Source: Octopus vulgaris (lineage: Eukaryota). Taken from it: a DNA stretch of 64,000 bases. Position 1 is the stretch's first letter. Each line of letters opens with the position of its first letter. Positions 2,557 through 50,999 of the stretch are shown in pieces. The notes beneath the pieces were generated by a model, which saw only the letters and a program-made list of their open reading frames with translations, had not been told where the DNA came from and ran no database searches. Position numbers and translations under genes: made by a program. The stretch spans positions 90,954,001-91,018,000 of the forward strand of contig OX597815.1 of NCBI GenBank assembly GCA_951406725.2, read 5' to 3'.

Positions 2557-2827
2557 ATTATGAAACAGTGGACTGCCAGAATCTTTATAAAGTTGAACAA
2601 AATGCATTGCATCATCTATTCCCATTCTTTACGTTCTGTCTTCAATTGCAAGCAAAATGAACGTTACGTTTCATACTTCCGGGAATCGCTCAAACAAGTA
2701 CTGCAGACGATTTAAATGAATAATACATTTATGGCTTTTGTGCCTATGTAAAAAAAAAAAATTAATTATACAAAATAATATTCGTTTATGTTGTGTCATT
2801 TCTGCATACATTATTTTCATTTAAATA

Positions 2828-3217
2828 TTCTTTTATTGGTTTCAGTCATTTAAATGGAACCATGCTGGGGCACCTCCTTTTAGTCGAAGACATCGACCGC
2901 TGGATTTATTCTTTGTAAGCTTGGAACTTATTCAATCGGTGTCTTATGCTGAACCGTTAAGTTACGGATACGTAAACATACTAACATTGCTTGTCAAGCG
3001 AATGGTGAGGTACAAACACAGAGACATATATAAGTATATACATATATATATATATATATATATACGAGAGGCTTCTTTCAGTTTCCGTCAACCAAATCTT
3101 CTCACAAGGCTCTGGTCGGCCCAAGGCTATAATAGACGGCACTTGCCCAAGGTGCCACGCAGTGGAACTGAATCCAGAACCAAGTAGTTGGGAAGCAAGC
3201 CTCTTACCATACAGCAA
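2828..3217 (-). mobile_element. tRNA-derived SINE family B (CORE-like), ~400 bp with internal TA tract
   Basis: Minus strand reads TGTATGGTAAGAGGCTTGCTTCCCAAC..GGATTCAGTTCCACTGCGTGGCACCTTGGGCAAGTG. A second copy lies at 50585-50999. Confidence 0.85.
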
Positions 3218-3671
3218 CAAGAGTGGAATTTAATTCATGGTTTCGATTCTTAGATAAAGTCATTCGAATTAATTTGTAGACAGAAAACAAGAATGGCCAC
3301 CATAAATACTGCTGCTCAGCTTTCCCTCTGTTTAAATGTTTTTTGTGTCTTATCGAAACAAACTAGTAATAAACAGTCTGTATCGGTAACCACAGTTTCA
3401 AAGCAATTCGCTGACGAAAACATTTTACCCAAGGGACAATGCACTTGGTTCCTTTATTTCTTGTTTTATACTATATGTGCAGTATTCAACAGCATCAAAA
3501 AACCTTAAATTTTTACCGTTTCACTACTAAAGTAGATACTTAGATGTGCTTATTTGTTTGAATAATGATTTCATGTTCGTAAAGCTACGAGTAAATTATC
3601 TCTGAAATACTTTATTTATTCGCTCCACACACGCACAACTTACACACTTACAGACACGAGCGCATGCATAA

Positions 3672-7859: not shown

Positions 7860-8480
7860 AAGGCGGTGAACTGACAGAAACGTTAGCACGCCGGGCGAAC
7901 TGCTTAGCGGTATTTCGTCTGCCGCTACGTTTAGAGTTCAAAACGCCGAAGTCGACTTTATCTTTCCTCCTTTCGGGATAGATTAAATAAGTACCAGTTA
8001 CGCACTGGGGTCGATATAATCGACTTAATCCGTTTGTCTGCCCTTGTTTGTACCCTCTCTGTGTAGCCCCTTGTGGGCAGTAAAGAAATAGGTATTTCGC
8101 CTGCCGCTACGTTCTAAGTTGAAATTCCGCCGAGGTCGGCTTTGCTTTCATCCTTTCGGGGTCGATTAAATAAGTACCAGTAACGCACTGGGTCGATATA
8201 ATCGACTTAATCCGTTTGTCTGTCCTTGTTTGTTCCCTCAGTGTGTGTAGCACTTTGTGGGCAGTAAAGAAATAAGAATCGTTGGCATCTCTGGCACAGT
8301 GCTCAGCGGCATTTTGTCCATCTTTAGCTTCTGAGTTCAAATTCCGCCGAGGTCGACTTTACCTTTCATCCTTTCGGGGTCGATAAAATGAGCACCAGTT
8401 GAGTACTGAAGTCAATGAAATCGATTAATCCCTTCCCCCCGACCCTGCTCGCCTTGCGCCAAAGCTTACAATTAATATTC
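7860..8480 (+). mobile_element. SINE family A trimer: two Tx1-tailed units followed by an older ATT-type unit
   Basis: Junctions are TAAAGAAATA|GGTATTT at 8090/8091 and TAAAGAAATA|AGAATCG at 8274/8275. Confidence 0.9.
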
Positions 8481-8877: not shown

Positions 8878-9319
8878 CGCGTATGAATGAAATAAGTTCA
8901 AATAATAAACAAAAGTTGATTCAGTTGACTATACCCCTATCGGTTTTAGTACTTCCCGTTTACTTACAATAAAAGAAGAAAATGAAGAAAGCCTATAGCA
9001 CTGCAAAGCCTCACCATTTCATTCTTTCGTCGCCATCTCACAACTTGTTTTAGATTATAATTGTATAAGCATTACAAGACACCCTTTTACAATATTTGGG
9101 GGAAATGACTTCAGCATTTCAAAGTAATGGATCATTTATAAATGGTATATAATTCATAAAGCAAAGATTTCAGCGGGTATTCAAAAACAATGTAATGCAA
9201 CATTAAAATTTTTGTCGTATTTAAGCTATTTAAATTTTTAGTTTAAATTCTATTGATATCAACGTTGTCTGTCAACCTCGAGGATTTAATATATGAAGTA
9301 CTGTAAATAAAATATACCC

Positions 9320-9458
9320 AAATTCCGCAGAGGTTGACTTTGCTTTCCATCCTTTCAAGGTCGATAAAATAAGTATCAGTTGAGTACTGGGGTCTATGTA
9401 ATCGACTAACCAACTCACCCGAAACCGCTGGTCTTGTGCCAAAATTTAAAACCAATAT
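9320..9458 (+). mobile_element. SINE family A, 5'-truncated
   Basis: AATTCCGCAGAGGTTGACTTTGCTTTCCATCCTTTC..GTCGATAAAATAAG core plus tail. Confidence 0.8.
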
Positions 9459-12296: not shown

Positions 12297-12936
12297 ACTC
12301 ATTAATTTTACAGTGCTACCGCTACAGTTGAGCGTTGAGTGTCATATAGAAATCAGGATACTAATTAACGGCTCTTTAAATATTGATGCACCATTCTGTT
12401 CACCATATCCTAGCAGTTCCTGGCTTAAACACATTAATTTTTAAAATGTCTTTAGAATTAGTATCAGGGTTAAATGATTTGCGTAACCAAATCCGAATAT
12501 ATTGATTTGTTTTAACTAACCACAAATGGCATTCATTTATAGGAAAATACACGTATATATTGCAACGCTTATACATTTCTTGAGTATACTAATCGCGAAA
12601 TTAAATAACATCTAATTAGATTCACACCACATAGCAAATTTACACGACCAATAACTTTCTCTTTATACAAAGAGGTTTGTGATTGTGGAGTTTAATGGTA
12701 CTTGTTAGTTTCATAATTTAAATTTGTAATCAAAATATGTTTACGCATTTGTGATGGTCTTGCTCCTGCTACTTTTGTTATTGCTTCTGCTGCTGCGGCT
12801 TCTGCTGCAGCTGCTGCTGCTTGCCTACACAATCTGGTCTGCATCGAAAACATCCTCCAGCAGCTGGGTAGAAAACAACCATTGGTTCACATATTCGTTG
12901 TTTCTGTTCAATGTCTACCCTGCTAATATTACATGA

Positions 12937-14190
12937 TTTTTATTACTCACAACGGGATATACACAGAAAGGGACAATACAAAACAAGATAAACATAAACT
13001 CGGGGAACTTAAAATACAAAAAGAAGATGAATTAAGACGAAAAAAATTTTAAAAACGAATGAAAATATGAAAAGATATAAATCAGGTGCAATGCCGACTC
13101 GACCCCCGAAGTCGAGTGGTTACATTTCGACAATTTTGTTTTCCTTTTTTCATAAATGAATTTCACAAATATTACATTTGAATTTTTCTTTTTAGTCTCT
13201 CATAATCCATTATGGTAGGTGGGCTTTCATGTAGCCGACACCATTTCACCAGTTTTACGTTCTTTGCGAAGCCCTCCATGAATTTGTCGTAACTCTCCCC
13301 AGGTATCAAAAGACCGCTATCACTTGAGTCAAAAGTGTCTCCCGCCAGCCTCACTCTCACCAGTCCCTTCATTTTCGCGATTCTTCTCTCTGCGTCCGCA
13401 CTTTTTGTATGTTATAAATGCTCACTTAAATTTATACGGTTCATTTTCTGTTTCTTCCTCTTGCATTTTCTTACTTTCAAAATTCTCCTTACCTTTTTGG
13501 TTTTCTTCTGAGTGTTCCCTTGTCTTCGATCTCTTTCTTCTTTTGGGGTTAATAACTCCCTCGCTCACCTCCTTTGATTCTTTCATTTCACTTTTCTTCT
13601 TGTCTTTATCTTTCTGGGTACAGTCCTTGTCTAATTTTTCAGCTTCTGTTTGTACTTTCTCCTGCATTTGCTCTTTTGCTCTTTTTTGTTCTTTTGTTCT
13701 TTTGTTCTTTTTCCGCTGTCTTTTCGCTTTGTGTGAATTCATATAAGATACACTCGGTCATTATGGGTTCTCTCACTCCGCATAGATAGCAATTATGTCT
13801 CTTCCCTCCACTACAACATTTAGCGTTATCTCGTTCTGAACCTCGATCTGGTAGGGGATTCTCTCGATGTCTTCGATTGCGGCGACAAGCCACATTCCGA
13901 CTCCAAACCCCCACCAGTTCAACGTATTTGTTTCACCAACTGGTCCCAGTTCAGGTTCGTCCTCTGTAGACGCCAGTACCGCTGCAACCAACCATTCCGC
14001 TTTTATTTCTGGTGGCACTCTCGAAATCCTAACTCTGACCCTGCTCATATTACAATAGCTTCTGTTACAGGCCAGGGATCTGTGTCCTTATCTCTCAACA
14101 TCTTAAGTATGTTCACTCTCAACTGTTTGTATATCGTACCCTCCCCCACGGAGATGCAGTTTTCGTAAATCTACTAGCTGACTACTTTTC
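12937..14190 (-). mobile_element. ORF1-only (HAL1-like) non-autonomous derivative of the Tx1-like lineage, frameshifted
   Basis: RISRVPPEIKAEWLVAAVL..NWWGFGV..LNVVVEGR..CYLC aligns with ORF1 of the 16.8-kb LINE (KIDLAPPELDMSWLVAAVL..NWLGMGV..LNVAVEGRKPKCFLC). The last ORF1-like piece stops at 13172. About 235 nt later comes the 3' motif TTGTCCCTTTCTGTGTATATCCCGTTGTGAGTAATAAAAA, with no ORF2 between. The 5' boundary is approximate. Confidence 0.7.
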
Positions 14191-14739: not shown

Positions 14740-14952
14740 TTGCATGGAGCTGGCAGAAACGTTAGCGCGCCGGGCGAAATGCTTAGCGGTATTTCATCTG
14801 TCTATACTTTCTGAGTTCAAATTCCGCCGAGGTTGACTTTGCCTTTCATCTTTTCGGGGTCGATAAATTAAGTACCAGTTGCGTACTGGGGTCGATCTAA
14901 TCAACTGGCCCCTTCCCCCAAAATTTCGGGCCTTGTTCCTAGAGTAGAAAGG
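14740..14952 (+). mobile_element. SINE family A with 14-bp TSD
   Basis: TSD AATATTGTCATCTA at 14726-14739 and 14953-14966. Confidence 0.9.
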
Positions 14953-16461
14953 AATATTGTCATCTACTGGCTAACTCATTTGCACAACTGCAACTACTAT
15001 TCATTGCCTTCATGTTTATATTTTCCAGAGATGGTAATAGTGGTTTCTAACATAGGCAACAAGTTCACAATGAGAGGTGAGGCATAGTCAGCAATATCGA
15101 CTCGAATTTTTGACTGGTACATATTTTATCAACCTCACGTCGTATGTACTGCAGTGAAATTTGAATTCAGAACATACATGTTAATATACAATCATCAGTA
15201 CAACTCATAATAAAACCATTATCTCTTAAATATTAATACCGTGTGTTCATGAGGAAAGTAAAGGATCTTAATTGAAAAAGCTGTATCAGGACATATAATA
15301 ATGTAAGTAATATTCGATAATTATGCTTTCAGTACTTTGAAAATCGATGCAATATGAACCAACTAGCATACAGCCTTCCCCTACGAAAATTGTTCGTCTC
15401 TAGTCAAAATCGATCTATATTTCTACAGTTTATATTTAACTACTCTCAGAAAGCAATGCAAACTTATAACGTCAAAGAAGGAGCAATGTTCAGAAGTTAT
15501 GACCTGGGTTATTAGATTAAGTGTTTTCTTACAATAATGTCAGACACACACCACTAACAAACAATTGTCAAATGAATGATGTAAAATTTATGCAGCTATC
15601 AGTATGAAAACCGGTTATTAGTATTGCACTTTACGTCTGATAAAACATACGTGCATACGCACGCGCTAACGCACCGACATATACACACATTAAGCGCAAT
15701 ATTCACACACAGCCAATAACATGAAGACCACACAGTCAGTTTTAATTGGCTATAGTTGTTCAAACTAAAACATTTCTGCGCCAGATTACCAAGTTAAAGA
15801 TTAACTGTGTCTTATAAGAGAGAAACAGATAAGTCAGTAAAAGTAGACAAAGAAAGATCTTGCCATTTAAATACCATTATCACATTTCTCTTATAGAGGC
15901 ATTAACTTATCTAATGCACCTTTCGGCTGTCGAAATTGATAAAAAGATTATAAAATGACCGTAAATGTTACGGAACTTAAGTAGAAGCAATTTGAAGAGT
16001 TTAAAATTAAGCACTTCTGACAGTCTCTATGAAACGTAATTGAGTCCATCAGATTAGATAGGGTCATATTCAAAACAGGATTAATGTCGATCCGGTAAGC
16101 ACAAGCAACGGGGAAAAGATATAAATACATTACATATTACATGATACTATCATCATTCTGTCAAGCGAAAATATCAAAGTTGTTCGTTCCCAAAGTTGGT
16201 GTGACTCTATTTTTGAATAATTCTTATTTTAAAGGTTCGAATATAGGGTTACTTCAAAAAGAATCTATACGTTCTTATAATGCAACAAACGTGTTGAAAC
16301 TGCGGCTTTTCATTCAATATAAGTTTTATCTAATATTAGGGGTGTACGTGCTAGATTATCTATTTGAAACAGCGATAATAAAAGTCTTACATTTCTGTGT
16401 CAGGCAGAAGGAATAAATTACCATGATAGGAAGGAATATTTGTCAGATGAATATTGTAATA

Positions 16462-16665
16462 TTCTTTACTACTACAGGCACAAGGCCTGAGATTTGTGGG
16501 GAGAGGGCTAGCCGATTACATAGACCCCCAGTAATTATTTTATCGAGCCTAAATATATGAAGAGCAAAGTTGACCTCAGCGGAACTTGAACTCAGAACGT
16601 AAGACGGACGAAACGTCGCTAAACATTTTTTCCGGCGTGCTACCGAATCTGCCAGCTCACCACGA
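16462..16665 (-). mobile_element. SINE family A, diverged copy
   Basis: Reverse complement of the head (GAGCTGGCAGATTCGGTAGCACGCCGG), core and tail. Confidence 0.8.
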
Positions 16666-16689
16666 AAAATAAGATGCGAATTTTACATT

Positions 16690-16832
16690 GAAAGGCTGAC
16701 TTATCCTTTTATCTTTTCGAGTCGATAAAATAAGTATCCGCCGAGCAATGGGGTTGATATAATCCACTTACCCACACCCCTGAAATTGCTGGCCTTGTAC
16801 CAATATATGAAACCATTATTATTATTATTATT
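16690..16832 (+). mobile_element. SINE family A 3' part, whose (ATT)n tail hosts the Tx1-like LINE
   Basis: GTCGATAAAATAAG..GCTGGCCTTGTACC..AAACC followed by (ATT)6. Confidence 0.8.
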
Positions 16833-17051
16833 CCTTCCGACGCCGATGGACGTACGTGAATCAGCTCCGTGAATTTGACACCAATTTCATTGGAAATCTA
16901 TTGATAGGTTTGAATATTTTTTAATATTTTTGTAGCCAAACCGACCGGCTTCTTGCGGAGCTCGTCGGTTGGGCGAAATTTTGCCCCATTCGGGGTGAAA
17001 TTACTGTCTATCCTTTTGAAATTGACATTTTTTGCACACACACATTACAAA

Positions 17052-18746
17052 ATGGCATTGAAACGAGCTGCTGGCTCTTCCCTCCTTCTTACAACACCCC
17101 CTCCACAAGAACAAAAAAAAATAACGTCACGGGTTACGAACAACCCATTTCAGGCCGTAAAAGGCAACAGAGCTCCTCCTTCCGAACCGGAGAGCACGCG
17201 CTCGGTTCAAAAGGAGGAGGAAGAAAAAACAATTACAAAAATCATCACAAACATTGACACGGAGAAAAAAGAAAAAACTTCCAACAATTTTGCTTCTGCT
17301 GCGAAGCAAATTTCGGAGGAAGTTAAGATAACTCTAGAAGATGTGAAAAGAGCGAAGGAGTTGTTGAGGAAGGATGGCAATGGCATCTTCCTCAATACTC
17401 CACAAGAGGTGATTGAAAGCACCAACAAGAAAACAATAATTTACAAAGTTTTCGACAGAAAACTAAAAAGAATAACAAATGCCACACCCCAACAGTTGGA
17501 GATAGCTCTAAAGCCCATTTGGGCCCAAAAGAGCTACGTAACCAAGGGGAAGCGTTTTGGAACCGTGGAGGTTCGCTTCCCAACAGAGGAGCTTGCAAGG
17601 GCGAACGCCATTTCGCCCTTGCAAACTGAGAATTTGTTACTAGTTCCGACCCACCTCGGGCGAAGAGTAACAAAAATAAAAATCGACCTCGCCCCCCCTG
17701 AGCTAGATATGTCATGGCTGGTGGCAGCTGTCCTCTATGATATAGAGGACACTACCACCATTCTAGATGTCAGGAGAGTGAGGGCGAAAAACTGGTTGGG
17801 GATGGGAGTGCTGCTTCTTGCGCAAATTCAGCAAGACAATATAAGTAAAGTCCCTGATTTCGTAAGTTTGCCGGACGGCACCAGGCTAAACGTTGCTGTG
17901 GAGGGGCGAAAGCCAAAATGTTTTCTCTGCAGCAGCGAAAGCCACTTAAAGAGGGACTGTCCCATTCACAAAAAGAGGATGGAGGCTTTCAGCAAGAGGC
18001 AGCAGCAACAACAACAACAACAACAACAACAACACAAGCAACAACAACAGAAACAACAAAAACAGCAAGAAACACCAAAGGCTGCCACACCACCAACACC
18101 ATCACCAACACCAGCACCAAGACGAACAACACCACCTCCAACAACAACAACCACCACCAAACCAACACCGACAACCACCACCAAACCAACACCGACACCA
18201 GTACCGACAGCAGCGACATCAACAGTAACAGGAGCAGCGGCACCACCGATACCGGCGGAACCAAAAACTTTTCGTCCTGCTACTGAAGCAGACCCCTCAA
18301 CCATTCCTTTGCCGGATGAAGAGATCTCGGATTGTGCGAGCTCTGATTCCAACAAAGGAGAATGGAACATAGTGCCTCTAAAAAAGAAAAGGAGGAAAAA
18401 ACAAAAAGATTTACAGGGGAAGCACGAACAAATAGTACTTCCCAACATCAACAACAACATCAACAACAACACACACTCACAACAACAAACAACAACAACA
18501 ACACTTTCGACACCACTACTGCCACTACCACAGACACAAACAAACACAGACACATTTACAGACACGATTACAGCAGTGAATACAAGAAACCAGGAACTGG
18601 TTGAGTATTTGAAAAACAAAACAAGCACAAACATTACAGATTTCATAATACCTACACACAACACACCACCAGCACACATTCTCACAATAAAAATAAACAA
18701 AACAGTTTACAACGAAATAAAACAAATATTCCCTAAGGATCGTTAG
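17052..18746 (+). CDS. LINE ORF1p (gag-like, zinc knuckle), 564 aa from first ATG
   Basis: Uninterrupted frame (the track starts at TTG 16953; the first ATG is 17052). Contains CFLCSSESHLKRDC (CX2CX4HX4C), poly-Q, a Pro/Thr linker and basic KKKRRKK. Confidence 0.9.
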   Translation: MALKRAAGSSLLLTTPPPQEQKKITSRVTNNPFQAVKGNRAPPSEPESTRSVQKEEEEKTITKIITNIDTEKKEKTSNNFASAAKQISEEVKITLEDVKRAKELLRKDGNGIFLNTPQEVIESTNKKTIIYKVFDRKLKRITNATPQQLEIALKPIWAQKSYVTKGKRFGTVEVRFPTEELARANAISPLQTENLLLVPTHLGRRVTKIKIDLAPPELDMSWLVAAVLYDIEDTTTILDVRRVRAKNWLGMGVLLLAQIQQDNISKVPDFVSLPDGTRLNVAVEGRKPKCFLCSSESHLKRDCPIHKKRMEAFSKRQQQQQQQQQQQHKQQQQKQQKQQETPKAATPPTPSPTPAPRRTTPPPTTTTTTKPTPTTTTKPTPTPVPTAATSTVTGAAAPPIPAEPKTFRPATEADPSTIPLPDEEISDCASSDSNKGEWNIVPLKKKRRKKQKDLQGKHEQIVLPNINNNINNNTHSQQQTTTTTLSTPLLPLPQTQTNTDTFTDTITAVNTRNQELVEYLKNKTSTNITDFIIPTHNTPPAHILTIKINKTVYNEIKQIFPKDR

Positions 18747-18880
18747 GGAAAAGTTTCTCTCAGAAACTTTACAAAAATATTATTGAAGCACCCGTGCAAA
18801 AGCACAAGGGAGCCACCCCCACCACCAACAACAGTAAGTAGAGCCTTTTTTCTCCTTTTTTTCCCCCTAACTTTTGAAAC

Positions 18881-21800
18881 ATGGCAAATCTTAGAACCGG
18901 TTGCTTGAATGTGAGAGGCCTCGGGTCACCTTGGAAACAGGGTCACCTGTTAAACGACCTGAGGTTTCATGATGTGGATGTAGCAGCCATCAGTGAAACC
19001 AGGCTCTCCGACCCGCAGGAACTCGCAGCCCTTTTCGGCGGATACGAGATATTTCTATCTCCGTGTCGGCCGGGAGCGGGCGGTGGTGGTACTGCGGTGT
19101 TGTTTCGGAAGGGCCTGGACCTGAAAATAAGGACAGTCTTCTTGGATCCGGAAGGTAAGTTGGTGGTCCTCGACGTCGACGGTAGTGACGGCGGTGCTTT
19201 CAGACTGCTGGCTGCCTACGCTCCGACAGGAGCAGGGCAGTCGGATTATTTCAAACGTCTGGAAGTTTTCCTGGGAACGTCACGCACTCTAGTACTAGTT
19301 GGGGATTGGAACGCTGTCTTAGACGAACGTTTCGATCGGGTGGGCAGGGGAGCGTCTGATAGGAGAGGGGGAGGGTGCAAGAGCCTCGCCAACCTACTCG
19401 GCCGCTTTCAGCTGTCCGACAGGTTTCGACTAGACAACCCGAATGTGCCAATGTGGACTTGGACAAACCGCATCGGGTCGTCTAGATCGTACTTAGATAG
19501 AGTGTTTTGTAGGCCAGCGGATAAGGACAGCGTAGGGTGTCCACAATTCCACCTAGTCGAATATACGGACCACAAATTAGTGATCTGTACGGTCGACTTA
19601 GATAGGCTACATAGACAGGGACCCGGCTACTGGAAGCTGAACGCGTCGTTAACGGCGTGCAAAGCTTACAGAGACCGGATTAGTTTACTAGTTAAGCGGG
19701 CGCTCACGGGGGCAATCATCAACAACAACTGGTGGTTTGCCCTCAAGAGAGCAATTAGAGTAGAGTCGATTAGGTATAGTAAGACTCTAGCTATTGAACG
19801 TAGGAAGAGAGAGCGGGATTTAGTTAAGAAACTAGACGAGGCTCTTGACACTGGCATCGCGACCGACGTGTTGGCGGCAAGGTTGGCCCTCGACCAACAC
19901 TTCGACGCCAAACACGAAGGCTGCGTTGTCAGAGCTAAGGCACGTTCGCTAAGCGGGGAGGGGACTAGAGCCGCTCGATGGGCCCGCGTGGCGGAGGCGA
20001 AGCGAGGCAACAGAGCAACCATTCGGTCTTTGGTGGACCAGAACGGGCGCGAGGTTACCCAACCGAAGCAGATGTGTACGGTGCTTCAGCGGCACTTTGC
20101 TCAACTGTTTGGGACGAGCGGTGGAACGGACACCAACGGTACAGACTTCGGTGTGTACCTGGACGGACTGCCGCAACTCTCGACAGCGAGGCAGAGTGCT
20201 GCGAAGGACCGATATCTGCCTGGGAAGTACAGGAAGCGATGAAGAGTTGCACGAGAGGTAGATCGCCGGGTTTGGATGGTCTGCCCTACGAGCTTTACTT
20301 TTCAATGCCAGACTTGTTTGCGGACCTGTTGGCAAACGTCTACTGCAACTGGCAGCAAAACGGGAGAATTCCTGCTTTTGTCTGTCGAGGGGTGGTGGCT
20401 TTGCTAAAGAAGGACCCAAACAAGGGGGACGTTATAGGGAATTTCCGGCCCATCACTCTGCTCAATGCAGAGTTGAAGATTTTGGCCAAGGTGCTAGCCA
20501 AGAGATTGGCGCTTGTCGTGGACAAGCTGGTCGGCGAGACGCAGACATGCGCCGTGCCGACCAGGTCGATACACGACAACCTCCATCTCATGCGCTACAT
20601 CATAGAGAGGGTGGGTAACGACGCTGGCGCGGGTGGGGCTTTGATCAACTTGGATCAGAGTAAAGCCTTCGATAGGGTCGACCATCGGTACCTGGCAGCT
20701 GTCCTCAGGGCAGCCGGCTTCGGTCCAGTCTTCCGCGGGTGGATCGCTGCTTTATACAGCAACATCTGCTCGGTGATACGGGTGAACGGTCACCTTTCGG
20801 AACCGTTCGACATCTCGCGTTCGGTCCGCCAAGGATGCCCTCTCTCCTCCCTCTTGTACATTTTGACTCTCGAGCCATTACTGCGCAAGTTGGAGGCTTT
20901 GAGGGGTATCCCGCGCGATCTAGGAGGCGGAAACAGCGTGTCTGCTTATGCCGACGACGTCACCGTGGTGGTGTCGAGCCACAGGCACATTGGCCTGATT
21001 GGCGAGACGCTAAACCAGTACGAAGCGGTGACAGGGGCAAAGATTAACGCGGAAAAGTCTGTGGGCTTGCAACTGGGCACCTGGAGAGGCAAGCCCATGC
21101 CGTCCAACAGCGTCGTAGGGCGCTGGACAGACGGACCCGTTAAACTGCTCGGGGTCTGGTTCGGTCCGGACCTCCAGGTGGATAAGAACTGGGAAGAGGT
21201 GACGAGCAGGGTGGCACGTCTCACCCAGAAATGGGCCGAGAGGAAGCTGTCCCTGAAAGGTCGAGCGGAGGTGGCGAATGCGTACATCGCATCCGTCATC
21301 TATTACCGCTTGACCGTCGTCCCTTGTCCCGACCGCTGGTTGGCCAAGCTGGTACGTCTGCTCTTCGACTTTTTGTGGAAGGGTCAGGTGCCACTGGTCA
21401 GGCGATCCATCTGCTGTCAACGACCGCTGAACGGAGGCCTTGGAATGCCGTGGTTACTGTTGCGCAGACATGCGCTCAGGCTGCGGCATCTCAAGCGCTT
21501 CCTAGACGGTGAACAGGTGTGGTCGTCTTTTGTCAGACGCGATTTTCCGCAGCTCGTCTCTTTGACGGAACTGCAGACCTGGATCAAACGTAGACCGAGA
21601 AAGGGCGCTTGGCACCTCGAGTGCCGTCAAGCCCTCTCCGCCCTCCGCCAGGCGGGCAATGCGGTCGGTTACAGCTCCACTCTAGCGTTCTATAGAGGGT
21701 TAGTGGAGGAAAAATGCGACGACGTTCTCGGGGAAACTCTAGGCGTTGAAGATGACGAACTGTGCGGTCTGTTCGGGAGGACTTTCGGGCCGGGGCCGAT

Positions 21801-22314
21801 GGATAATTTCCAGAGGTCTCTCGCTTGGCAGTGCTACCGAGGGGCTCTGCCTGTTCGAGATAAACTCTACCGGCACGGAAGTGCCGTCAGCCGGGCCTGC
21901 CCGAGGTGTTGCCAGGACGACGAAACCGTCCTGCACGCACTCGTCCAGTGCCCGAGTATTGCTGAAATATGGGTTTATGTCGAACAGCTACTGTCACGTG
22001 TAGGACGGATCCGACTATCGGCCGAATCCATAGTGAAGATTGCCCCGCCGACCTCCTTTAACAAGGAGGGCGAGGCCGTTTTCTTGTGCCTAGTGGCTGT
22101 GGCGAAAGAGGTCGTGTGGTGGACTCGTTTGAAAGGGCTAAAGACAGACACTTTCCTCTTTGGTCAAGGCCTCATCAACTTTTTCAAGTTTCACTTGAAA
22201 AGGAAGATGAGGTTAGAGAGGAAAGTGCTGTCCGATAGCAAGTTTTATGAAAGGTGGGTGAATTGTGCGAGACTGGCCTGTATAAATGGACCAGTTCTCA
22301 GGTTTCGCCTGTGA
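18881..22314 (+). pseudogene. LINE ORF2p (APE endonuclease, reverse transcriptase, CCHC); one -1 frameshift near 20180; ~1144 aa if repaired
   Basis: APE motifs LNVRGL, ISET, AYAP, GDWN, YLDRVF, TDH and GPGYWKLN. RT motifs SPGLDGLP, NFRPITLLN, DQSKAFD, RQGCPLS and YADD. C-terminal CPRC..ETVLHALVQC. The frames join as LPQLS/DSEAECCEGPI. Confidence 0.92.
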
Positions 22315-22595
22315 TTTCAAAGAAAAAGGTAATGTAAAAGGAGAAGAAAGGGGACTCTCTACACCCCCTTTTTTTGACCAGGCTCCCGTTGGCTTTTGTA
22401 GGGTTTTTTCCACCAGGAACCTTTCGAGACGTCTCCCCCTTTTGGGAGTTTTTCATTGTTGAATTTTATAAGTTGTTATAAAGATTTTTACTCGATGTTT
22501 TTAAAAAACGGCAAAACCCTTTGTAACCTTTCGTCCTGTCTTGTCCCTTTATGTAATCATGCGTGTCAGCCCTTGTGGCCAATAAAAAAGAATTG

Positions 22596-22654
<59 letters not shown>

Positions 22655-22669
22655 GATTATTATTATTAT
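22596..22669. repeat. (ATT)n microsatellite between the Tx1 3' end and the R4/Dong fragment
   Basis: Read directly from the sequence. Confidence 0.97.
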
Positions 22670-24245
22670 TTTCTCTTTATCACCGGTTTTGAAGCCAATA
22701 TTTTTCTCACTCGCCGCAGGTACTCTCTTTTTGTATTTTCCTTCATGTTGTGGTGTTTGATTCTATCTACCTCAAGTATTCCCAGGTATTGAGAATTGAG
22801 GTTGAATTGTCTTCCTCATTTCACCACTTGGCAACCATATGCCTTCTGTCCTGACAAGCTTTCCTCGTCTCATCCCAATTGTAGCACATTTTGAGAGTCC
22901 AAACTCCATCTTGATATCATCGAAGAAAATCTGCATAAACTGAACTAGGCTGTCCAGTTCTGCCTCAGTGTTTGTGAATAGTTTCAGATTGTCCATGGAT
23001 AACAAGTAGTTTAGTTTCCCTTACCTCTTCTCAGATCATACCCCAACTTTGTTTTCTATAGTATTTCACTCAAGGAGATTATTCCCAGCACGAATATCAG
23101 TGGGGATATACTCTCCCCTTGGAAGATTCCTCTCTTGATTTTCACCTCTCCTAATACTTGCTCCCGTGTTGTCAATTCCGTTCTCCAGTATTTCATGCTA
23201 TTCCATATAAGGCTTCTCATATACTCTGCTACTCCATACATTTCCATTGTTCTTATTATCCATGAGTATGGTATATTTCTCCATCTTTTCCAGCTCTTTT
23301 CACCTACGCGAACATCCCCAGTTATGGCCATATCTATGATTTTAGTTTCCTTTTTTCCTTTATCTAGCACAAAAATGTCTCGTCTCGGAGCATCAACAAG
23401 GAAATCACATTGGATTGTCTCACAAGATCTTATATTCATTGTTCCCAGCGACACCTTCTGGTTCATATTTGAACCACTTTTATCTCTTCCCAGAACGTAC
23501 TTTCACACTGTCCCCAGTTAACAAACTTAGCCACGTTATCATACCTCCTTTTATATTGCATTTGAACCTGCTTGCTACACTCACAACATGCTAGGCTGTT
23601 TGGTTTTTTTCTACCACACATCTTGCAAGGGGGCGATTCACTGCTCTTATTTCTTTGGAACTTGATATAACTGGCGCTGTATGTCAATGCTTCAGTGCAT
23701 CCTTTCAGGTCACCTTTCCTAAGCCACCACCAAGTGTGGTATTGCCTATGCATTGTTTTCATTTACCAGTTGGTTATTCTTTGTTTTTCATCTTTCTTAA
23801 ATGTTTTTGAGTATGTCACATTTTCAGTAGGTATCGTGTTGCTCTTTCTAGCAGCGGCAAGCAAGGGTTCACTCTGCTATTTGATGTACCAACCCAGATT
23901 ATTCATCTCGTGGACAACACAGATCTTGCATCCTATGAGGCCTCTTCCTCCCTCTGTCCTAGGCATATAGAGTCTATCGATATAGTCTCCTTGCTGATTG
24001 TCATCACTTTCCTGGTTTTCCTATCCATTTCCTCTAGCTCGTTCTTTGTCCACCTAACAACACCAACGACGTATCGCATTAAAGAAACGGACCGTGCAGT
24101 CATTGCCCTAATCTTTTTATTTCCATTGAGTCTACTTCGTATGATTACTCTCGTTATTCGTTGATATGCTCGCCTTAAGCTTTCCTTTATCTATTTCCTT
24201 CATTTTGTCATACTCCAAAATACCCAGATATTTATAACCATCAAT
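22670..24245 (-). mobile_element. Decayed R4/Dong-type retrotransposon fragments in permuted order
   Basis: The order is GYKYLGILE (~24230), WWWLRKGDLK, CKMC, YKRRYDNVA, RRDIFVLDK..IIDMAI..EKMEKY (~23275). It then returns to RT: PYSWI..IKRGIFQGESISPLIF..MDNLKLF..MEFGLSKCA..EYLRRVRKIL. Confidence 0.85.
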
Positions 24246-24289
24246 CACAGCACTCTTTCTCGCCATTGAGTTGTAGTTCCGCACCATCA

Positions 24290-24500
24290 TGCTCAACTGA
24301 TTAAGATCAAGCAACTGACCAGCAAATCTGTGGTATTGAGTAGAATATTTGTTGTAGCCCAAATTTTAAACCAAGACAAAATGTACATGACAACACTTCC
24401 AATTAATTAAGATCAAAAACCATGAGAGCCACTGTTGGTACTGCATCAGAGTATTTCTTGATGCAGTACCAGACAGTGGCTCTCATGGCTTTTAACCTTA
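24290..24500. mobile_element. End fragment of the 1817-2278 repeat family, with terminal inverted duplication
   Basis: Matches 2180-2278. Inverted arms at 24420-24448 and 24459-24488. Confidence 0.7.
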
Positions 24501-24762: not shown

Positions 24763-25345
24763 CAGCGGCGAGCTGGCAGAAACGTTGGCACGCCGGACGA
24801 AATGCTTAACAGTCTGCCGCTACGTTATGAGTTCAAATTCCGCCAAGGTTGACTTTGCCTTTCATCCTTTCGGGGCCGATAAATTAAGTACCAGTTACGC
24901 ACTGGGGTCGATGCAATCGACTTAATACGTTTGTCTGTCCTTGTTTGTCTCCTCTGTGTTTAGCCCCGTGTGGGTAGTAAAGAAATAGGTATTTAGTCTG
25001 CCGTTACGTTCTGAGTTCAAATTCCGCCAAGGTTGACTTTGCCTTTGATCCTTTCGGGGTCGATTAAATAAGTACCCGTTACGCACTGGGGTCGATGTAA
25101 TCAACTTAATCCGTTTGTCTGTCCTTGTTTGTCCTCTCTGTGTTTAGCCACTTGTGGATAATAAAGAAATAGGTATATCTTCTGTCGCTATGTTCTGAGT
25201 CCGAATTCCGCCGAGGTCGACTTTGCCGTTTATCATCAAGGTCGATAAATTAGGTACCAGTTGAGTACTGGGGTTGATGTGATAGACTAATCCCTCCCAC
25301 CAAATTTGAGGTCTTGTGCTTCCAGTAGAAAAGACTATTATTATT
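24763..25345 (+). mobile_element. SINE family A trimer (two Tx1-tailed units plus one ATT-type unit)
   Basis: Junctions AAAGAAATA|GGTAT at 24987/24988 and 25171/25172. Confidence 0.9.
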
Positions 25346-30466: not shown

Positions 30467-30885
30467 TATATTTCTGTACAACCCACAAGGGGCTAAAAAC
30501 AGAGGGGACAAACAAGGACAGACAAACGGATTAAATCGATTACATCGACCCCAGTGCGTAACTGGTACATAATTTATCGACCCCGAAAGGATGAAAGGCA
30601 AAGTCGGCCTCGGCGGAATTTGAACTCAGCACGCAGCGGCGGACAAAATACCTATTTCTTTACTACCCACAAGGGGCTAAATACAGAGAGGACAAACAAG
30701 GACAGACAAACGGATTAAGTCGATTACATCGACCCCAGTGCGTAACTGGTCCATAATTTATCGACCCCGAAAGGATGAAAGGCAAAGTCGACCTCGGCGA
30801 AATTTGAACTCAGAACGTAACGGCAGACGAAATACGGCTACGCATTTCGCCCGACGTGCTAACGTTTCTGCCAGCTCGCCGTCTT
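30467..30885 (-). mobile_element. SINE family A dimer (two Tx1-tailed units) with 14-bp TSD
   Basis: TSD CGCTCCCTTAAATA at 30453-30466 and 30886-30899. Internal junction at 30652/30653. Confidence 0.92.
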
Positions 30886-32159
30886 CGCTCCCTTAAATAA
30901 ATGTGACCTTGTATCAATGGAAGAGATTTTAATTTAAATGTGGTGGGTGGCAGAATTAGCAGTGAGACAGAGAAACTGAGTTACCAGTTACACCGCTGTA
31001 CATTACGAGTTCAAGTGCCAAAATTTGTCTTTTGCCAATCAGGTGGGGATAACATATATACTGTCTCATTGCTTTGACAAAATCAGAAATCAATATTGCA
31101 CTGTTGTTATTGCGCTATAAACTTTTTTTATTAATAGATCTATAACAGAGATCTATAAGTTGGTGACTAAGCGAATGAATACTCTGATAACTGACTCAGA
31201 AATAGAAAGACTGTATTTCTGAATATCTGGACGGAAATTCTTATTCCGCTATTAAAGCTGTTGTCGTAATGATGGTTGTGGAACTTTGCTGTTTTTTATG
31301 ACACTTGGCAGACTAAATGTTGTCGGCGTTCTTGTTAAGGTACTAGGTACTCTTATTGTTGTTGAGGGTATTAGTAATACAGTTGAGTATTGAAATCCTT
31401 GGTACTACAGTTGCTGGATATTTAGAGGTTGTAGTTCTCGTTATTTGAGGTGTTTGATAATGTTGATATATTCTATGAAATGGAGGATTACAGATAAGAT
31501 CCTCTCTACTTAAAGCATAAGACCTGAAAGCTTGAGGACAGAAGTTGAACTATTATACATACCCCACTACTTAACAGGTTCTTATTTTATCGACCAGTAT
31601 GGAGGAGGAACGCATCAGGCATGCTCACTATATGTCCGAGCCACACATACACACACACATACACACAATCACAATAATACATCTGTAAGAGTTAGCACTT
31701 CCTTCTCTAAGCCTAGATTCGAACTGGAACATGGTTGAGTATGCTCCGTGTGGTCAGAGGTTTAGTCTTCTTTTTCTATTAATTAGACGGTGTATGTGGC
31801 TGGCTACTGATGTAGAATTGCTATGCTCTTTATATTTAAACGAGTTTAAATGTGAACAATATCTCTGTTTAAAATTAGTGGTTGATCCAACATAGGAGCT
31901 ATTGGAGTAATTTAATATGTTGTGAACTGTGCATTGGTATACTATATTGAATCTTCTGCATTGGGCTTGCAGCGCTCAGTCGGTTCCAAATCTGCAGTTG
32001 CAGCCATCTGTTCTAGGATGGTTAATTGGAGTGAGAGATGAGGTAGTTCTAATAGCCGACGACTGTGCGTGTGTGTGTGCGTATCTGTGTGTGTGTACAT
32101 GCACACATTATGTGGGCGATATTTTTCATACGAGACGTTCCAATTGTATCTGATCCTTC

Positions 32160-34811: not shown

Positions 34812-35358
34812 CTTTTCTATTCTAGGTACAAGGCCCGAAATTTGGGGGATGAAGGGCAATGTGGACATCGGTGGAATTTGAACTTAGAACGTAAAGACAG
34901 ATGAAATACCTATTCATTTACTACCCACAAGGGGCTAAACACAGAAAGGACAAACAAAGACAGACAAACGGATTAAGTCGATTACATCGACCCCAGTGCG
35001 AAAATGGTACTTAATTTATCGACCCCGAAAGGATAAAAGGCAAAGTCGACCTCGGCGGAATTTGAATTCAGAACGTAACGGCAGACGAAATAAGGCTACG
35101 CATTTCACCCGGCGTGCTAACGTTTCTTATTTCGTTACTGCCCACAAGGGGCTATACACAGAGGGGACAAACAAGGACAGACAAACGGATTAAGTCGATT
35201 ACATCGACCCCAGTGCGTAACTGGTACTTAATTTATCGACCCCGAAAGGATGAAAGGCAAAGTTGACCTTGGTGGAACTTGAACACAGAACGTAGCGCCA
35301 GACGAAATACCGCTAAGCATTTGGTCCGGCGTGCTAACGTTTCTGCTAGCTCGTCGCC
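34812..35358 (-). mobile_element. SINE family A trimer with imperfect ~22-bp TSD
   Basis: Junctions at 35127/35128 (tail|AGAAACG) and 34910/34911 (tail|GGTATTT). Flanks are TTCCTGCGTGTGGTTTGAATATT (34789-34811) and TTCCTGCCGTGGTTTGAATATT (35359-35380). Confidence 0.9.
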
Positions 35359-39340: not shown

Positions 39341-39931
39341 TCTCTCTCTCTCTTTCTTTATCTCTCTCTCGCTCTTTCTTTCTCTCTTTCTCCCTTTCTT
39401 TCTCGTTGTCTTCTAGTTCTATATCAAATAATATTTGCTCTACCTCATATACTCACGTATTTCACCAATGTTGCAATGTGTGTGTGTGTGTGTCTGTGTG
39501 TGTGTGTGTGTCTGTGTGTGTGTGTGTGTCTGTGTGTGTGTGTGTGTCTGTGTGTGTGTGATGTTTTGGCAACTTTTCTCTTGCTTATCGTCAACATGTT
39601 TTATAACTTATAAAGCGGGGCGATATATAGTGCACGTGACTGATTTGGGGTCTTATAGGCCGTAAGATTAAAATGGCTGACTGATATTCATGTTGAGCAG
39701 CTGAAGATAAAGTGCCAACTTTGCTCCGGTTCCCCTAACTGTTGAAAGGAACGGAGTGAACTCAACAAAAGCAATCAAAATACCAGATGCTAATATTAAG
39801 TCTACTACCCGGTATTTCAGAAATCAAAGGGCTGGAACACAAAAGAAACTTGTACACTTTGGACGCTTATGTTATAAATGAAATATGGCCGGAGGCACTG
39901 AATTGTAGCAAAAATATGTCTGTATATATAT

Positions 39932-39932
<1 letters not shown>

Positions 39933-40006
<74 letters not shown>

Positions 40007-40066
40007 TGTCTGTGTGTCTGTGTCTGTGTGTGTGTGTGTCTGTCTGTCTGTGCGTGTGGTGTGTGC
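39933..40066. repeat. (GT)n microsatellite
   Basis: Read directly; another run lies at 39477-39560. Confidence 0.96.
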
Positions 40067-40069
40067 GCT

Positions 40070-41995
40070 GTGGGATACTATTAAGAACCTAAAATTTAAA
40101 CGACACCCACTAAAGAATAATACTTACCAAAGAAGCTTAAAGGACCTACTACACGAACTGAAATCGCAAAAGGGAATTATTGTACACTCCGACAAAACCA
40201 GGAACTCATATAATTTGGATATTGATTTATACCACCGGTTATTGCATAAAGAATTAACGAAAAAATACAAAATAGTGCCTAATATCACTTTAAGATCTTT
40301 GGACTTATCTACCAATAAGATTATGACAAACTACAACATAGAAGAGAAAACTAAACATTTCGCACCTTCCAGACGCCGCATAACAATTAAGGACCATGAA
40401 GAAAATTTCTTAACAGACACAGAAGTTAGACTAGTCTGCCCTAATAAATCCGATCTATGTAAGCTAAGTAAATTAATCTTAGATAAATATATTCCTACTA
40501 TAAAAAATAAAATCCCTCTAGAATTATGATCAAATACCCACGACGCCCTTAATTGGTTCTCCAACATACAGAATAAAAATAGTTTTAAGTTACTACAAAT
40601 AGACATAGAGAACTCCTACTCATCAATTAACCCTACGATTCTAAATAGCGCTCTGATTTTCGCTAAAAGATATACCAAAATGACAATGAAGGAAATTAAG
40701 GTAATGACAGAAGCTAGGAAATCTATAATAAAATTCGATAACAAACTATGGGTAAGGAAGGACACCCCCAATTATTTCGACATCACTATGGGGGTTCCGG
40801 ACTCAGCACAGGTATCTAATTTTGTGTGTACTTACCTATTATCACATTTACACGAAGAATTCCCAGAGATTAGAGGAGACCTTTACAGAGACGATTCGTT
40901 AGTTATTCTTAAAAATACCTCAAATAGGAGACTTGAACTACTAATGAAAAATTATATAAGTTCTTTAAACGGTTTGGATTAACCATCACGATAGAAAAAG
41001 AGCATAATTCTATTAACTATTTAGGTGTCAATTGTAATTTAACCACGGAATTACATGAACCGTACGTTAAACCTAATACCAACTTCAAATATATTAATGC
41101 ACATAGCAACCACCCAAACTTTATAAAAAGAGGACTTGTACATGTCACTAGTAAAGGATTTTCGTATCTCTTGTCCAGCGAAGAAATCTTCAGTAAGTAT
41201 AAGGAACACTACAACATTGCATTGGAAAAAGTAGGTTATAAGCTAAAAATTAAGTACCTTTACTCAGAGCCTTAAAAAAATAACCCGAATAACATAAATA
41301 TTCATAATTATAATAATAGGAATAATAGTACTAATAAAGATAGTAGGAAGAGTGAGATTCATTATAATATTAAGAACAACATTAGATATAACGATACAAA
41401 TACTAATAATGGGAATGATAACAATACCAAGAAAATTAATCATGACGGTAAAAATTAAAATAATACACCTAAAAGAACCAATAAAGTCCCTGTTAATAAT
41501 TATAACATCAAGGTAAATAACTTATATAAATCGAATAGGAACAACCCTACCAAAGCTAATAGCAATAGTAATAAAAATAACAATAGAAAGAAGAATAATT
41601 ATAACCATAACTTTAGATCTGCCATAATACTGAGTGCAGTTTTTACACAAAAAAAAACAAAAATATTAAAAATAATAAGTGGAATAAAAATAGCCTCTGG
41701 CTAATAATCCCCTTCGCGATAAAACTAAAAACCAATATAGCTAAATCTATAATGAAGCTTATAAATAAGCACTTCAATATGAATACGAAATACTCAGGAA
41801 TCTTTAGCAATAAAATTAGAGTAGGCCATAGCCTAACTAGCAACCTAGCTACTATTATAGCCTCTATCAACAATAAAAAGCTAGACACTTTCTATGAAAC
41901 TAGGAAGAATAACAATAAAAAGCACAACAATCAATCGATTGATTCTCCAAATAACTCGCCCTCTAAAAATTCGGACAAACACCTTATAAATGATA
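40070..41995 (+). mobile_element. Decayed Penelope-like element (Naiad-like RT motifs), truncated before the GIY-YIG domain
   Basis: SDKTRNSY; ITIKDHEENF..VRLVCPNKSDL; LNWF..QIDIE; ARKSII..WVRK..FDITMG.PDSAQV; LYRDDSL; YVKPN..YINAHSNHP; KTNIAKSIMKLINKHF..IIASINNKKL. Multiple stops and frameshifts. Confidence 0.85.
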
Positions 41996-42002
41996 ATCCC
42001 TT

Positions 42003-43562
42003 CTGCAGAACAGTTTCGTCGCTCTGACCGCATCTCGGGCAAGTCGTTTCGGTATGTTTCGAACCGTGCCTGCAGAGCTTATCCCGAACATGTAATGCTT
42101 CTCGATAGCACTGCTAGGCCAGGAATCTTTCGTGATTGTTCATAGGTCCCGGCCCGAAAGTTATCCTGAACAGGCGGGTCAGGTATTCCTCGTCGACGCC
42201 CAGATTCTGTCCAGGAACCTCGTTGCACCTCCCCTCCACTATTCCTGAATAGAACGCCTTTGTTGTCATGAAGTTGCACAAGTTTGGCCCCGATGGCAGA
42301 TTTGCTTGAGAGCAACGCGACACTCGCGGTGCCATTTGCCTAGCCTCAGTCTCTGATCCACGACTGTAGTTCGGCCAAGGAGACGAGCTACGGGAAAGCG
42401 CGCCACACAAACGGCGACCACACCTTCTCACAGTCGTCCATGAAGCGCCGGAGATATTGCAGTCTCAGTGCATGCCTGCGCATCATCAAGCAAGGAAGGC
42501 CTAGCCCTCCATTTACCGGGTGTTGACAGCAAATGGATCGCCTAACCATCGGAACGCTTCCCTTCCACAGGAAGCGGGGGAGTTCCAGTTTGGTTGTGGT
42601 AGGGTCGGGACAAGGCACGACGGCCAGACGGTACTCGATGACGGATGCGATGTACGCGTTCGCCACCTCCGCCCGACCTTTTAGGGATACCTTTCTCTCA
42701 GCCCATTGCTGGGTGAGAGTGGACACCATAGTCGTTATTTCACCCCAGTTCTTCTCCATTTGGAGGTCCGGACCGAACCAGACTCCGAGCAATTTAACCG
42801 GACCGTCGGTCCAGCGTCCCACGATGCAGACGGCATGGGCTTGCTTCTCCAGGTGCCGAGCCGCAAGCCCACTGACTTTTCCCGGTTAATTTTGGCTCCC
42901 ATTACCGCTTCGTATTGTTTTAGTGTCTCACCGACCAGGTCGATGAGCTTGTGACTCGACACTATGACGGTGACGTCGTCCGCGTATGCAGACACGCTCT
43001 TACCGCATCCCAGCTCTCATGGGATGCCCCTCAGCGTCGCCAGCATCCGCAGCAGTGGTTCAAGGGTCAATATACAGAGAAGCGACGAGAGGGAGCATCC
43101 TTGACTAACCGAATGCATTATGTTAAATGGTCTGGATAGATGACCACTCACGTGAACTACCGAGTGGATGCCGCTATATAAGGCAGCGATCCAACTGCGG
43201 ATGGTGGGACCGAAACCAGCCGCTTTAAGGACAGCGTCCAAGTAGTGATGGTCTACCCTATCGAAAGCTTTTGATTGATCCAAATTGATCAGCGCGCCAC
43301 TCATGCCAGGATTCCTAATTACCCTGTCTATGGTGTAGCGCACCAGATGGAGGTTGGCATGGCGCACGTTTGTGCCTTGTCGACTAGTTTCTCAATGACA
43401 AGCGCCAACCTCTCGGCTAACACCTTGGCCAAAATTTTCAAATATGCGTTGAGCAGAGTGATGGGCCTGAAGTTATCTATGACGTTCCCCTTGTTTGGAT
43501 CTTTTTTTAGCAGTGCCACTGCTCCTCGCTTTACAAAGACGGGGATACTCCCGTTTTGCTGC
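42003..43562 (-). mobile_element. Tx1-like ORF2 fragment (sister subfamily of the 16.8-kb LINE), truncated at both ends and frameshifted
   Basis: QQNGSIP..LLKKDPNKG..NFRPITLLN; LINLDQSKAFDRVDH; SAYADDVTV; GRWTDGPVKLLGVWFGPDLQ; ends at CPRCGQSDETVL. Confidence 0.93.
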
Positions 43563-50584: not shown

Positions 50585-50999
50585 ATTCTTTCATTCTTTT
50601 ACTTGTTTCAGTCATCTGACTGCGGCCATGCTGGAGCAGCCCTGTGAAGGTATTTTAGTCGAATGAATCGACCCCCCTCCCAGTACTTCTTTATTTCTTT
50701 TTAAAGCCTGGTGCTTATTCTATCGGTCTCTTTTTGCCGAACAGCTAACTTACAGAGACGTAAGCAAATCAACAGTGGTTGTCAAGCGCCGATAGAGGTA
50801 CAAACACAAAGCCACAAAGACACGTAGATATATGCATACGATGGGCTTCTTTCAATTTCCGTCCAACAAATCTTCTCACAAGGCATTAGTCGAACCGAGA
50901 CTATAGAAGACACATTCCCAAGGTGCCACGCAGTGGGATTGAACCCGGAACTATGTGGTCGGGAAGCAATCTTCTTACCACACAGCCACGTCTACGCCT
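50585..50999 (-). mobile_element. SINE family B, full copy
   Basis: Minus strand reads AGGCGTAGACGTGGCTGTGTGGTAAGAAG..GGGTTCAATCCCACTGCGTGGCACCTTGGG; homologous to 2828-3217. Confidence 0.88.

Follow-up and report, generated by a model that had tools for sequence, protein, structure and literature searches.

The question raised by this locus is whether the 3′ ends of three different retroelements in the window (the whole stretch of 64,000 nucleotides analysed here) are related and, if so, what such ends are used for. These elements are a Tx1-type LINE, an ORF1-only element and one variant of a SINE (type B). All three have related tails of 45-60 letters, and no end is followed by a poly(A) run. 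Tx1-type elements are relatives of human L1. We suppose, with a probability of roughly 60%, that these homologous poly(A)-less tails serve as an RNA signal for the ORF2 proteins of related octopod Tx1 families and that the LINE of the window is a sister of the element that moves the SINE variant. The three termini quoted in the initial annotation are present, for the LINE at 22533-22593 and for the ORF1-only element at 12937-12981 (minus strand); the string given for the SINE variant is exact at 35136-35179 (minus strand), and several of its letters differ at 8036-8090, the other example that had been offered. The LINE and a relative of it are laid out as follows.

16833..22595, plus strand: Tx1-type LINE of apparently full length, with an (ATT)n tract on either side; ends read by sequence, to within a few bases in the repeat
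17052..18746, plus strand: LINE ORF1, 564 amino acids, one weak CCHC knuckle (zf-CCHC E 0.077, below cut-off; CCHC-domain clusters 0.92)
18881..22314, plus strand: LINE ORF2, with apurinic-type endonuclease, reverse transcriptase and zf-RVT
22315..22595, plus strand: LINE 3′ UTR, about 280 nt, without poly(A) tail
22541..22586, plus strand: LINE tail, with TTGTCCC box (22541-47), predicted hairpin GCC-CTTGT-GGC (22569-79) and AATAAA (22581-86)
22596..22670, plus strand: (ATT)n tract 3′ of the LINE, likely its split target, with an (ATT)6 counterpart at 16815-16832
42000-43560 (about 42.0-43.6 kb), minus strand: second Tx1 copy, 73% identical to the LINE, truncated at both ends

By its sequence the LINE appears Tx1-like, as had been claimed, with the two-ORF layout and the apurinic endonuclease and reverse transcriptase of this group. 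ORF2, whose reading frame is interrupted by one frameshift near 20.2 kb, matches PF03372 (E 8e-18), RVT_1 (E 2e-30) and zf-RVT (E 8e-9), and its endonuclease matches L1 ORF2p chains. The top Atlas cluster bears the automatic name TX1 149 kDa family (score 0.97). Among named proteins, ORF2 is closest to one of Argonauta hians (68% identity), and no relatives were found in viral contigs, JGI metagenomes or prokaryote genomes. The LINE family is young and widely distributed, 60% or more of its words being present in 20 of the 24 public runs listed. A 1.8-kb contig labelled Herbaspirillum sp. (MAG) encodes a protein 68% identical to ORF2 (proteins P0005, P0121); it is probably animal DNA misbinned with bacteria.

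The second Tx1 copy has lost its 3′ end and thus provides no second tail for comparison. Its 5′ side adjoins an (ATCT)n microsatellite, and its 3′ end is cut off by an AT-rich stretch at about 41000-42000, mitochondrial-DNA-like in look. A Pfam scan of 94 of the 111 other open frames in the window revealed no other LINE with a readable 3′ end; the 17 frames outside the scan lie within SINE copies or within the second Tx1 copy. On the minus strand, 22690-24330 holds rearranged fragments without Pfam match that resemble another non-LTR reverse transcriptase and which we take, from their motifs, to be R4/Dong-like.

The second partner in the comparison is an element with ORF1 alone.

12934..14037, minus strand: ORF1-only element, 5′-truncated inside ORF1, decayed, without ORF2 remnant
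12934..12990, minus strand: its tail, with TTGTCCC box, CCC-GTTGT-GAG (GGG in sister copies) and AATAAA
12917..12933, minus strand: 3′ copy of its target duplication, 17 nt, 16/17 identical to 14038-14054
14038..14054, minus strand: 5′ copy of the target duplication

Its ORF1 shares 28-35% identity with that of the LINE (match E 1e-15), whereas none of 149 ORF2 homologue queries matches 12900-14100 (E 0.05). The 17-nt duplication has no further match in the window at up to 3 mismatches, and the 3′ end consists of five A followed by target sequence. Public contigs matched in four runs number 197, 222, 133 and 1, contig depth not being read as copy number. Contig cover from other copies reaches 12937 and then falls to flank level, and the last stop codon and UTR are bridged by at least 31 letters on each side in 6 of the 25 contig pieces listed. 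On these grounds the ORF1-only element is a multi-copy retrotransposed family and no one-off deletion. The initial reading of it as a real non-autonomous family is supported, and so is that of the LINE as Tx1-like. Derivation by deletion from the LINE of the window is ruled out, as the ORF1 proteins differ to the extent given above and the UTRs are different. The ORF1-only 3′ UTR also contains a long near-perfect inverted repeat (13085-13130, minus strand: CCACTCGACTTC..GGGGTCGAGTCGG), at which contig cover peaks; a strong hairpin is found at a similarly early position in the LINE UTR.

The third partner is a non-coding, multi-copy SINE of about 230 nt. In the window it has one head and core and three tail types, A, B and C, which diverge just 3′ of the core.

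8032..8090, plus strand: type B tail, then SINE position 48
8214..8274, plus strand: type B tail, then position 15 of a type C SINE
24929..24987, plus strand: type B tail, then SINE position 48
25113..25171, plus strand: type B tail, then position 48 of a type A SINE
30653..30711, minus strand: type B tail, then SINE position 48
30469..30527, minus strand: type B tail, then unique DNA; 14-nt target duplication
35128..35186, minus strand: type B tail, then SINE position 15
34911..34969, minus strand: type B tail, then position 48 of a type A SINE
16458..16668, minus strand: example of type A SINE, tail hairpin CAGGC-CTTGT-GCCTG
14745..14955, plus strand: type A SINE flanked by a 14-nt target duplication; in public contigs, B-like tails join at its position 48 (14788)
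9319..9456, plus strand: example of type C SINE, tail hairpin TGGT-CTTGT-GCCA
16699..16832, plus strand: 5′-truncated type C SINE, with the LINE inserted in its (ATT)n tail

Words resembling an A box and a B box were recognised in the head by eye; ARAGORN and Rfam gave no match. Target duplications of 13-14 nt flank 4 of the 10 units examined, and 2 more units lie within repeats. The type B tail, of 59 nt, is present in 8 copies. Pairwise identity of head and core amounts to 88.6% among B copies, 74.6% among A and 76.9% among C. The B tail is younger than A and C and is joined to the shared head and core at a single point, so that the tail swap proposed initially is supported; stringent recognition of this tail is a further, putative step. 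Plain tandem duplication as the origin of the B arrays is ruled out: the B tails run on into what remains of A or C copies, and it is these older copies that the outer target duplications flank. A B-B dimer master may be the source of three junctions.

Tail similarity was evaluated against 1000 dinucleotide shuffles each way. The ORF1-only end scores 38-64 against the B tails, values reached in all eight cases by at most 4/1000 shuffles, and one alignment is identical in 45 of 60 columns (75%). Scores of the LINE end against the eight B tails are lower (22-39): seven are reached by at most 12/1000 shuffles (three of the eight by none) and the remaining one is not significant (233/1000). LINE and ORF1-only ends score 36 against each other, reached by at most 2/1000. 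When a profile from the eight B tails is run over the whole window, it finds, after its own eight, the ORF1-only end at E 3e-4, the LINE end at E 0.1 and noise at E 8.2. The common terminus that had been described is therefore clear for the ORF1-only element and B and weaker for the LINE and B; similarity exceeds that of shuffled sequences in both pairings, for the LINE with seven of the eight B tails, as well as between LINE and ORF1-only element.

The weakness on the LINE side has several aspects. In a scan of 5114 windows, the LINE end scored 30, only level with an unrelated stretch of low complexity; its alignment to B requires a 9-nt indel, and what makes the match convincing is mainly its exact position at the terminus. 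Raw identities to B are about equal, 40-46 of 59-61 for the LINE and 41-47 for the ORF1-only end; the reading of the LINE as a sister, not a partner, consequently rests mainly on the gaps and on the landing sites discussed below. As for A and C, their tail profiles do not match the LINE end at E up to 10, and only 1/6 was significant against shuffles, at 5/1000.

Could these tails resemble each other by convergence on a U/G-rich stretch followed by an AATAAA-like 3′-processing signal, with no common descent? Both coding elements do have AATAAA, B has AGTAAA, U and G abound in the tails, and an internal U-rich block of the LINE and ORF1-only 3′ UTRs scores 31, compared with 36 for the terminal block. 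Yet shuffles that keep the dinucleotide composition score lower, the match of B to the ORF1-only end extends over 60 columns at 75%, and poly(A) follows none of the ends, which makes convergence quite improbable in our opinion. The best local match between the 280-nt UTRs of LINE and ORF1-only element is their last 52 columns, and the tails stay alike although the ORF1 proteins have diverged so far. We thus regard the tails as homologous, tail sharing being strong for the ORF1-only end with B and weak for the LINE with B, and the observation as a whole as real and moderately supported.

Within these tails a small hairpin is predicted, with a stem of 3-4 bp and a (C/G)UUGU loop, 14-22 nt from the end. 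RNAalifold chose it for ten related tails, and gave no consensus fold for 16 A/C tails. The initial annotation had described a compensated stem change between LINE and SINE. One pair is indeed altered on both sides between LINE and B, but two-sided change among the ten related tails does not exceed that in shuffles (196/500), nor does the covariation score (39/500). The hairpin is weak, at -2.8 kcal/mol in the LINE and -4.7 to -6.6 in 6 of the 8 B copies, and its ensemble probability is above 0.5 in only 3 of these 8. If the TTGTCC box pairs with the 3′ arm instead, the resulting alternative helix has 90% of cells paired and no two-sided change. The ORF1-only copy of the window cannot form the hairpin, a point absent from the initial annotation; CCC/GGG around the GUUGU loop is restored in sister copies from public runs X10 (8 contigs) and X11 (6), the restoring letter not being seen in run X1 and X15 contributing one record only.

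These weaknesses, together with the differences in the terminal 5-12 nt and in the targets of the three elements, would suit a situation in which the tail is inherited and the fold is not read: B would have obtained a Tx1 3′ end by template switching, while the last few bases and target choice decide mobilisation. We consider this rather unlikely, given that the last 50 nt outlast the remainder of the UTR and that the loop is constant while stems flip across five tail classes. The CUUGU loop is also found in the older SINE tails A and C, at a similar distance from the end and with flipped stems: AGGC/GCCU in A and UGGC/GCCA in C, GCCC/GGGY in B, GCC/GGC in the LINE. The corresponding majority pairs are CG,GC,GC,AU (A), CG,GC,GC,UA (C), CG,CG,CG,GU/GC (B) and CG,CG,GC (LINE). 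Tails A and C are without the TTGTCC box. In the 16 A/C tails 74% of cells pair, as reached by 17/500 shuffles in a control that ignores relatedness, and the 4-bp stem is intact in 4/7 A and 1/6 C copies. Among pentaloop positions in the window, only 5% have a 3-bp stem and 2% a 4-bp stem. The A/C loop with its flipped stems, as modelled and not mentioned in the initial annotation, gives the strongest hint that a hairpin is read. It also leaves without support the idea that the swap to tail B brought a new signal, since the older tails have the same loop. A precedent is provided by zebrafish L2, whose proteins need a fixed loop and tolerate stem variation (PMC4176376).

Landing sites separate the three elements. 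B ends join SINE position 48 in 5 of the 8 copies and position 15 in 2, and unique DNA in 1. B-like tails at position 48 also occur in public contigs, in 358 (X11), 392 (X10) and 238 (X7) records, and are absent among the rows listed for run X1. In two arrays the outer target duplication is that of an older A or C copy, therefore B inserted into that copy. The LINE, for its part, sits within the (ATT)n tail of a type C SINE, which it splits. In 3 of 4 runs, contigs show a second, 5′-truncated LINE copy after a tail of this kind, with 16832 joined to 21986, so the (ATT)n preference is based on n=2 junctions. The ORF1-only copy lies in unique DNA, and a SINE head after the ORF1-only end is absent in 4-5 other contigs. 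Insertion signatures of LINE and SINE B, (ATT)n versus SINE positions 48 and 15, do not agree.

Some further features of these sites deserve mention. At the 16832-to-21986 joint, the C-type (ATT)n tail stands directly before the last 600 nt of the LINE, at about 10x flank depth in two runs; this may stem from amplification of a SINE-LINE composite or from duplication of a truncated insertion. A and C copies in unique DNA have AATATT at or near the start of their target duplications in 3/3 cases (7841/8472, 14726/14953, 35380/34811), which suggests a target preference close to (ATT)n. In the loose-end consensus at position 48 (14788), the loop is preceded by ACCC in two DNA runs and by GCCCC in a third, a hint that elements other than SINE B land there too.

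According to the initial annotation, the LINE of the window was itself the stringent partner of both passengers. Tail homology, by shuffles and by the B profile, speaks for its family as the carrier of the SINE variant and the ORF1-only element, as do its youth and wide distribution (at least 60% of words in 20 of the 24 runs listed). Accepted bivalve SINE-LINE pairs, moreover, share only 35-61 bp at 72-95% identity (PMC11481361), and in crocodilians the Tx1-Mar families have two insertion sites within a single target (PMC4494074). Against this, the LINE tail is the weakest match, with its 9-nt gap, though LINE and B are both young, and the three elements have three landing contexts. Because its tail is the least similar and the insertion contexts differ, the LINE of the window is unsupported as carrier, and we judge this possibility unlikely. 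Target choice is set mainly by the endonuclease (PMC4494074); different landing sites therefore point to different carriers. As the three elements land in different places, we favour one tail signal used across several Tx1 families, the LINE being a relative of the partner.

With one signal and several families, ORF2p would bind the tail hairpin and read the loop as sequence and the stem as shape, by analogy with L2 elements, while the endonuclease of each Tx1 family would set its target. ORF1-only derivatives would keep that hairpin tail without poly(A). The SINE could have acquired tail B, probably by template switching, from a putative Tx1 family targeting SINE heads, and the new tail would have carried the new landing site along; no such SINE-head-targeting LINE is found in the window. 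For a copy landing at position 48 or 15, the 5′ end of the host SINE would make the unit complete, which may favour this habit.

A bolder version is that one CUUGU-loop hairpin is the RNA password of the whole octopod Tx1 radiation, that tails A, B and C all come from different Tx1 families, and that swaps kept the password and re-aimed the SINE. We put it forward as a tentative possibility only. If true, such swaps sent A and C to AT-rich or (ATT)n sites and B to the head of the SINE itself, and the choice of target would lie with the SINE tail. Recognition in this animal system of the L1 superfamily would then be stringent and independent of poly(A).

It is standard for SINEs to share their tails and to exchange them (PMC4824008, PMC5786205). 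The UnaSINE/UnaL2, ZfL2-1/ZfL2-2 and bivalve CR1, L2 and Nimb pairs are like the octopus case, whose head is putatively of tRNA type, in head and shared core (PMC4176376, PMC4824008, PMC11481361), as well as in an exchangeable tail of 35-60 nt that matches the LINE 3′ end and a hairpin, predicted for the octopus, with conserved loop and variable stem. The octopus differs from these UnaL2, ZfL2 and bivalve pairs in its Tx1-type partner, in a much smaller predicted hairpin (3-4 bp) and in a tail exchange that goes with a change of landing site; tail length and identity are at the low edge of accepted mollusc pairs (35-61 bp, 72-95%; PMC11481361).

Closer by LINE type are ZmSINE2/3 with LINE1-1_ZM in maize and sorghum and SINEX-3_CR with L1-1_CR in Chlamydomonas, which likewise have a LINE of the L1 superfamily, conserved last 45-50 nt and a conserved-loop hairpin common to the SINEs, comparable with the one predicted in the octopus (PMC3472496, PMC3747384). 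These stringent pairs show that the premise of the initial annotation, that L1-clade partners are usually poly(A)-dependent, was too strong. Unlike them, the octopus elements are of animal Tx1 type, without poly(A), and their hairpin energies are -2.8 to -6.6 kcal/mol, compared with -10.8 to -17.7 in the plant and algal pairs. In crocodilians, SINEU elements are also thought to be moved by Tx1 families (Tx1-Mar), the link being a common target inside another transposon (PMC4494074). SINEU has poly(A), and that work found no LINE with the SINEU-1 3′ end (PMC4494074); in the octopus, SINE and LINE are linked by a common tail, and insertion is into the head of the SINE itself. Tx1-type LINEs inside microsatellites are known from Kibi, in (TC)n, and Koshi, in (TTC)n (PMC4494074), whereas the octopus repeat is (ATT)n at a SINE tail, with a preference suggested by two junctions.

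HAL1 (half-L1), HeT-A and Ag-Sponge are, similarly to the ORF1-only element, non-autonomous LINE derivatives with ORF1 only that retrotranspose as a unit (PMC5753468, PMC5786205). They come from the L1, Jockey and CR1 clades, while the octopus element is Tx1-related and without poly(A) tail. Judging from its Tx1-related ORF1 and five terminal A, it appears to work like HAL1 without being HAL1 itself.

The 2013 table of SINE-LINE pairs, in the portion available, has no Tx1 pair (PMC3747384), and the accessible parts of PMC4758252 and PMC5804259 hold nothing further on Tx1. In the 2026 annotation of Octopus vulgaris, 13 L1-Tx1 families are counted as recently active, with no partners named in its available text, and 893 of 900 active SINE families are left unclassified (PMC13282606). 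The literature searched yielded no SINE with a tail in common with a Tx1 3′ end; Repbase, Dfam and supplements (e.g. the PMC13282606 repeat library) lay outside this search and may hold such families. Sharing of tails by SINE and LINE is thus of an already known kind, and the Tx1 case is new relative to this literature.

Evidence on whether strict tail recognition came first in the L1 superfamily and was later relaxed to poly(A) comes so far from the two cases in plants and algae. The question would become directly testable in an animal Tx1 group that has two kinds of passenger and a common hairpin tail lacking poly(A), of which several natural stem variants exist. A short tail of this type would also serve for loading RNA onto a site-preferring retrotransposon.

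The window contains other repeats besides these. Two reading frames, at 39909-40980 and 31757-31975, are presumably Penelope-like, to judge from their motifs; the frame at 31.8 kb has a weak GIY-YIG match (E 0.0024, below cut-off). Finally, a repeat of 400 nt is present in two copies, at 2827-3218 and 50593-50989, which are 71% identical.
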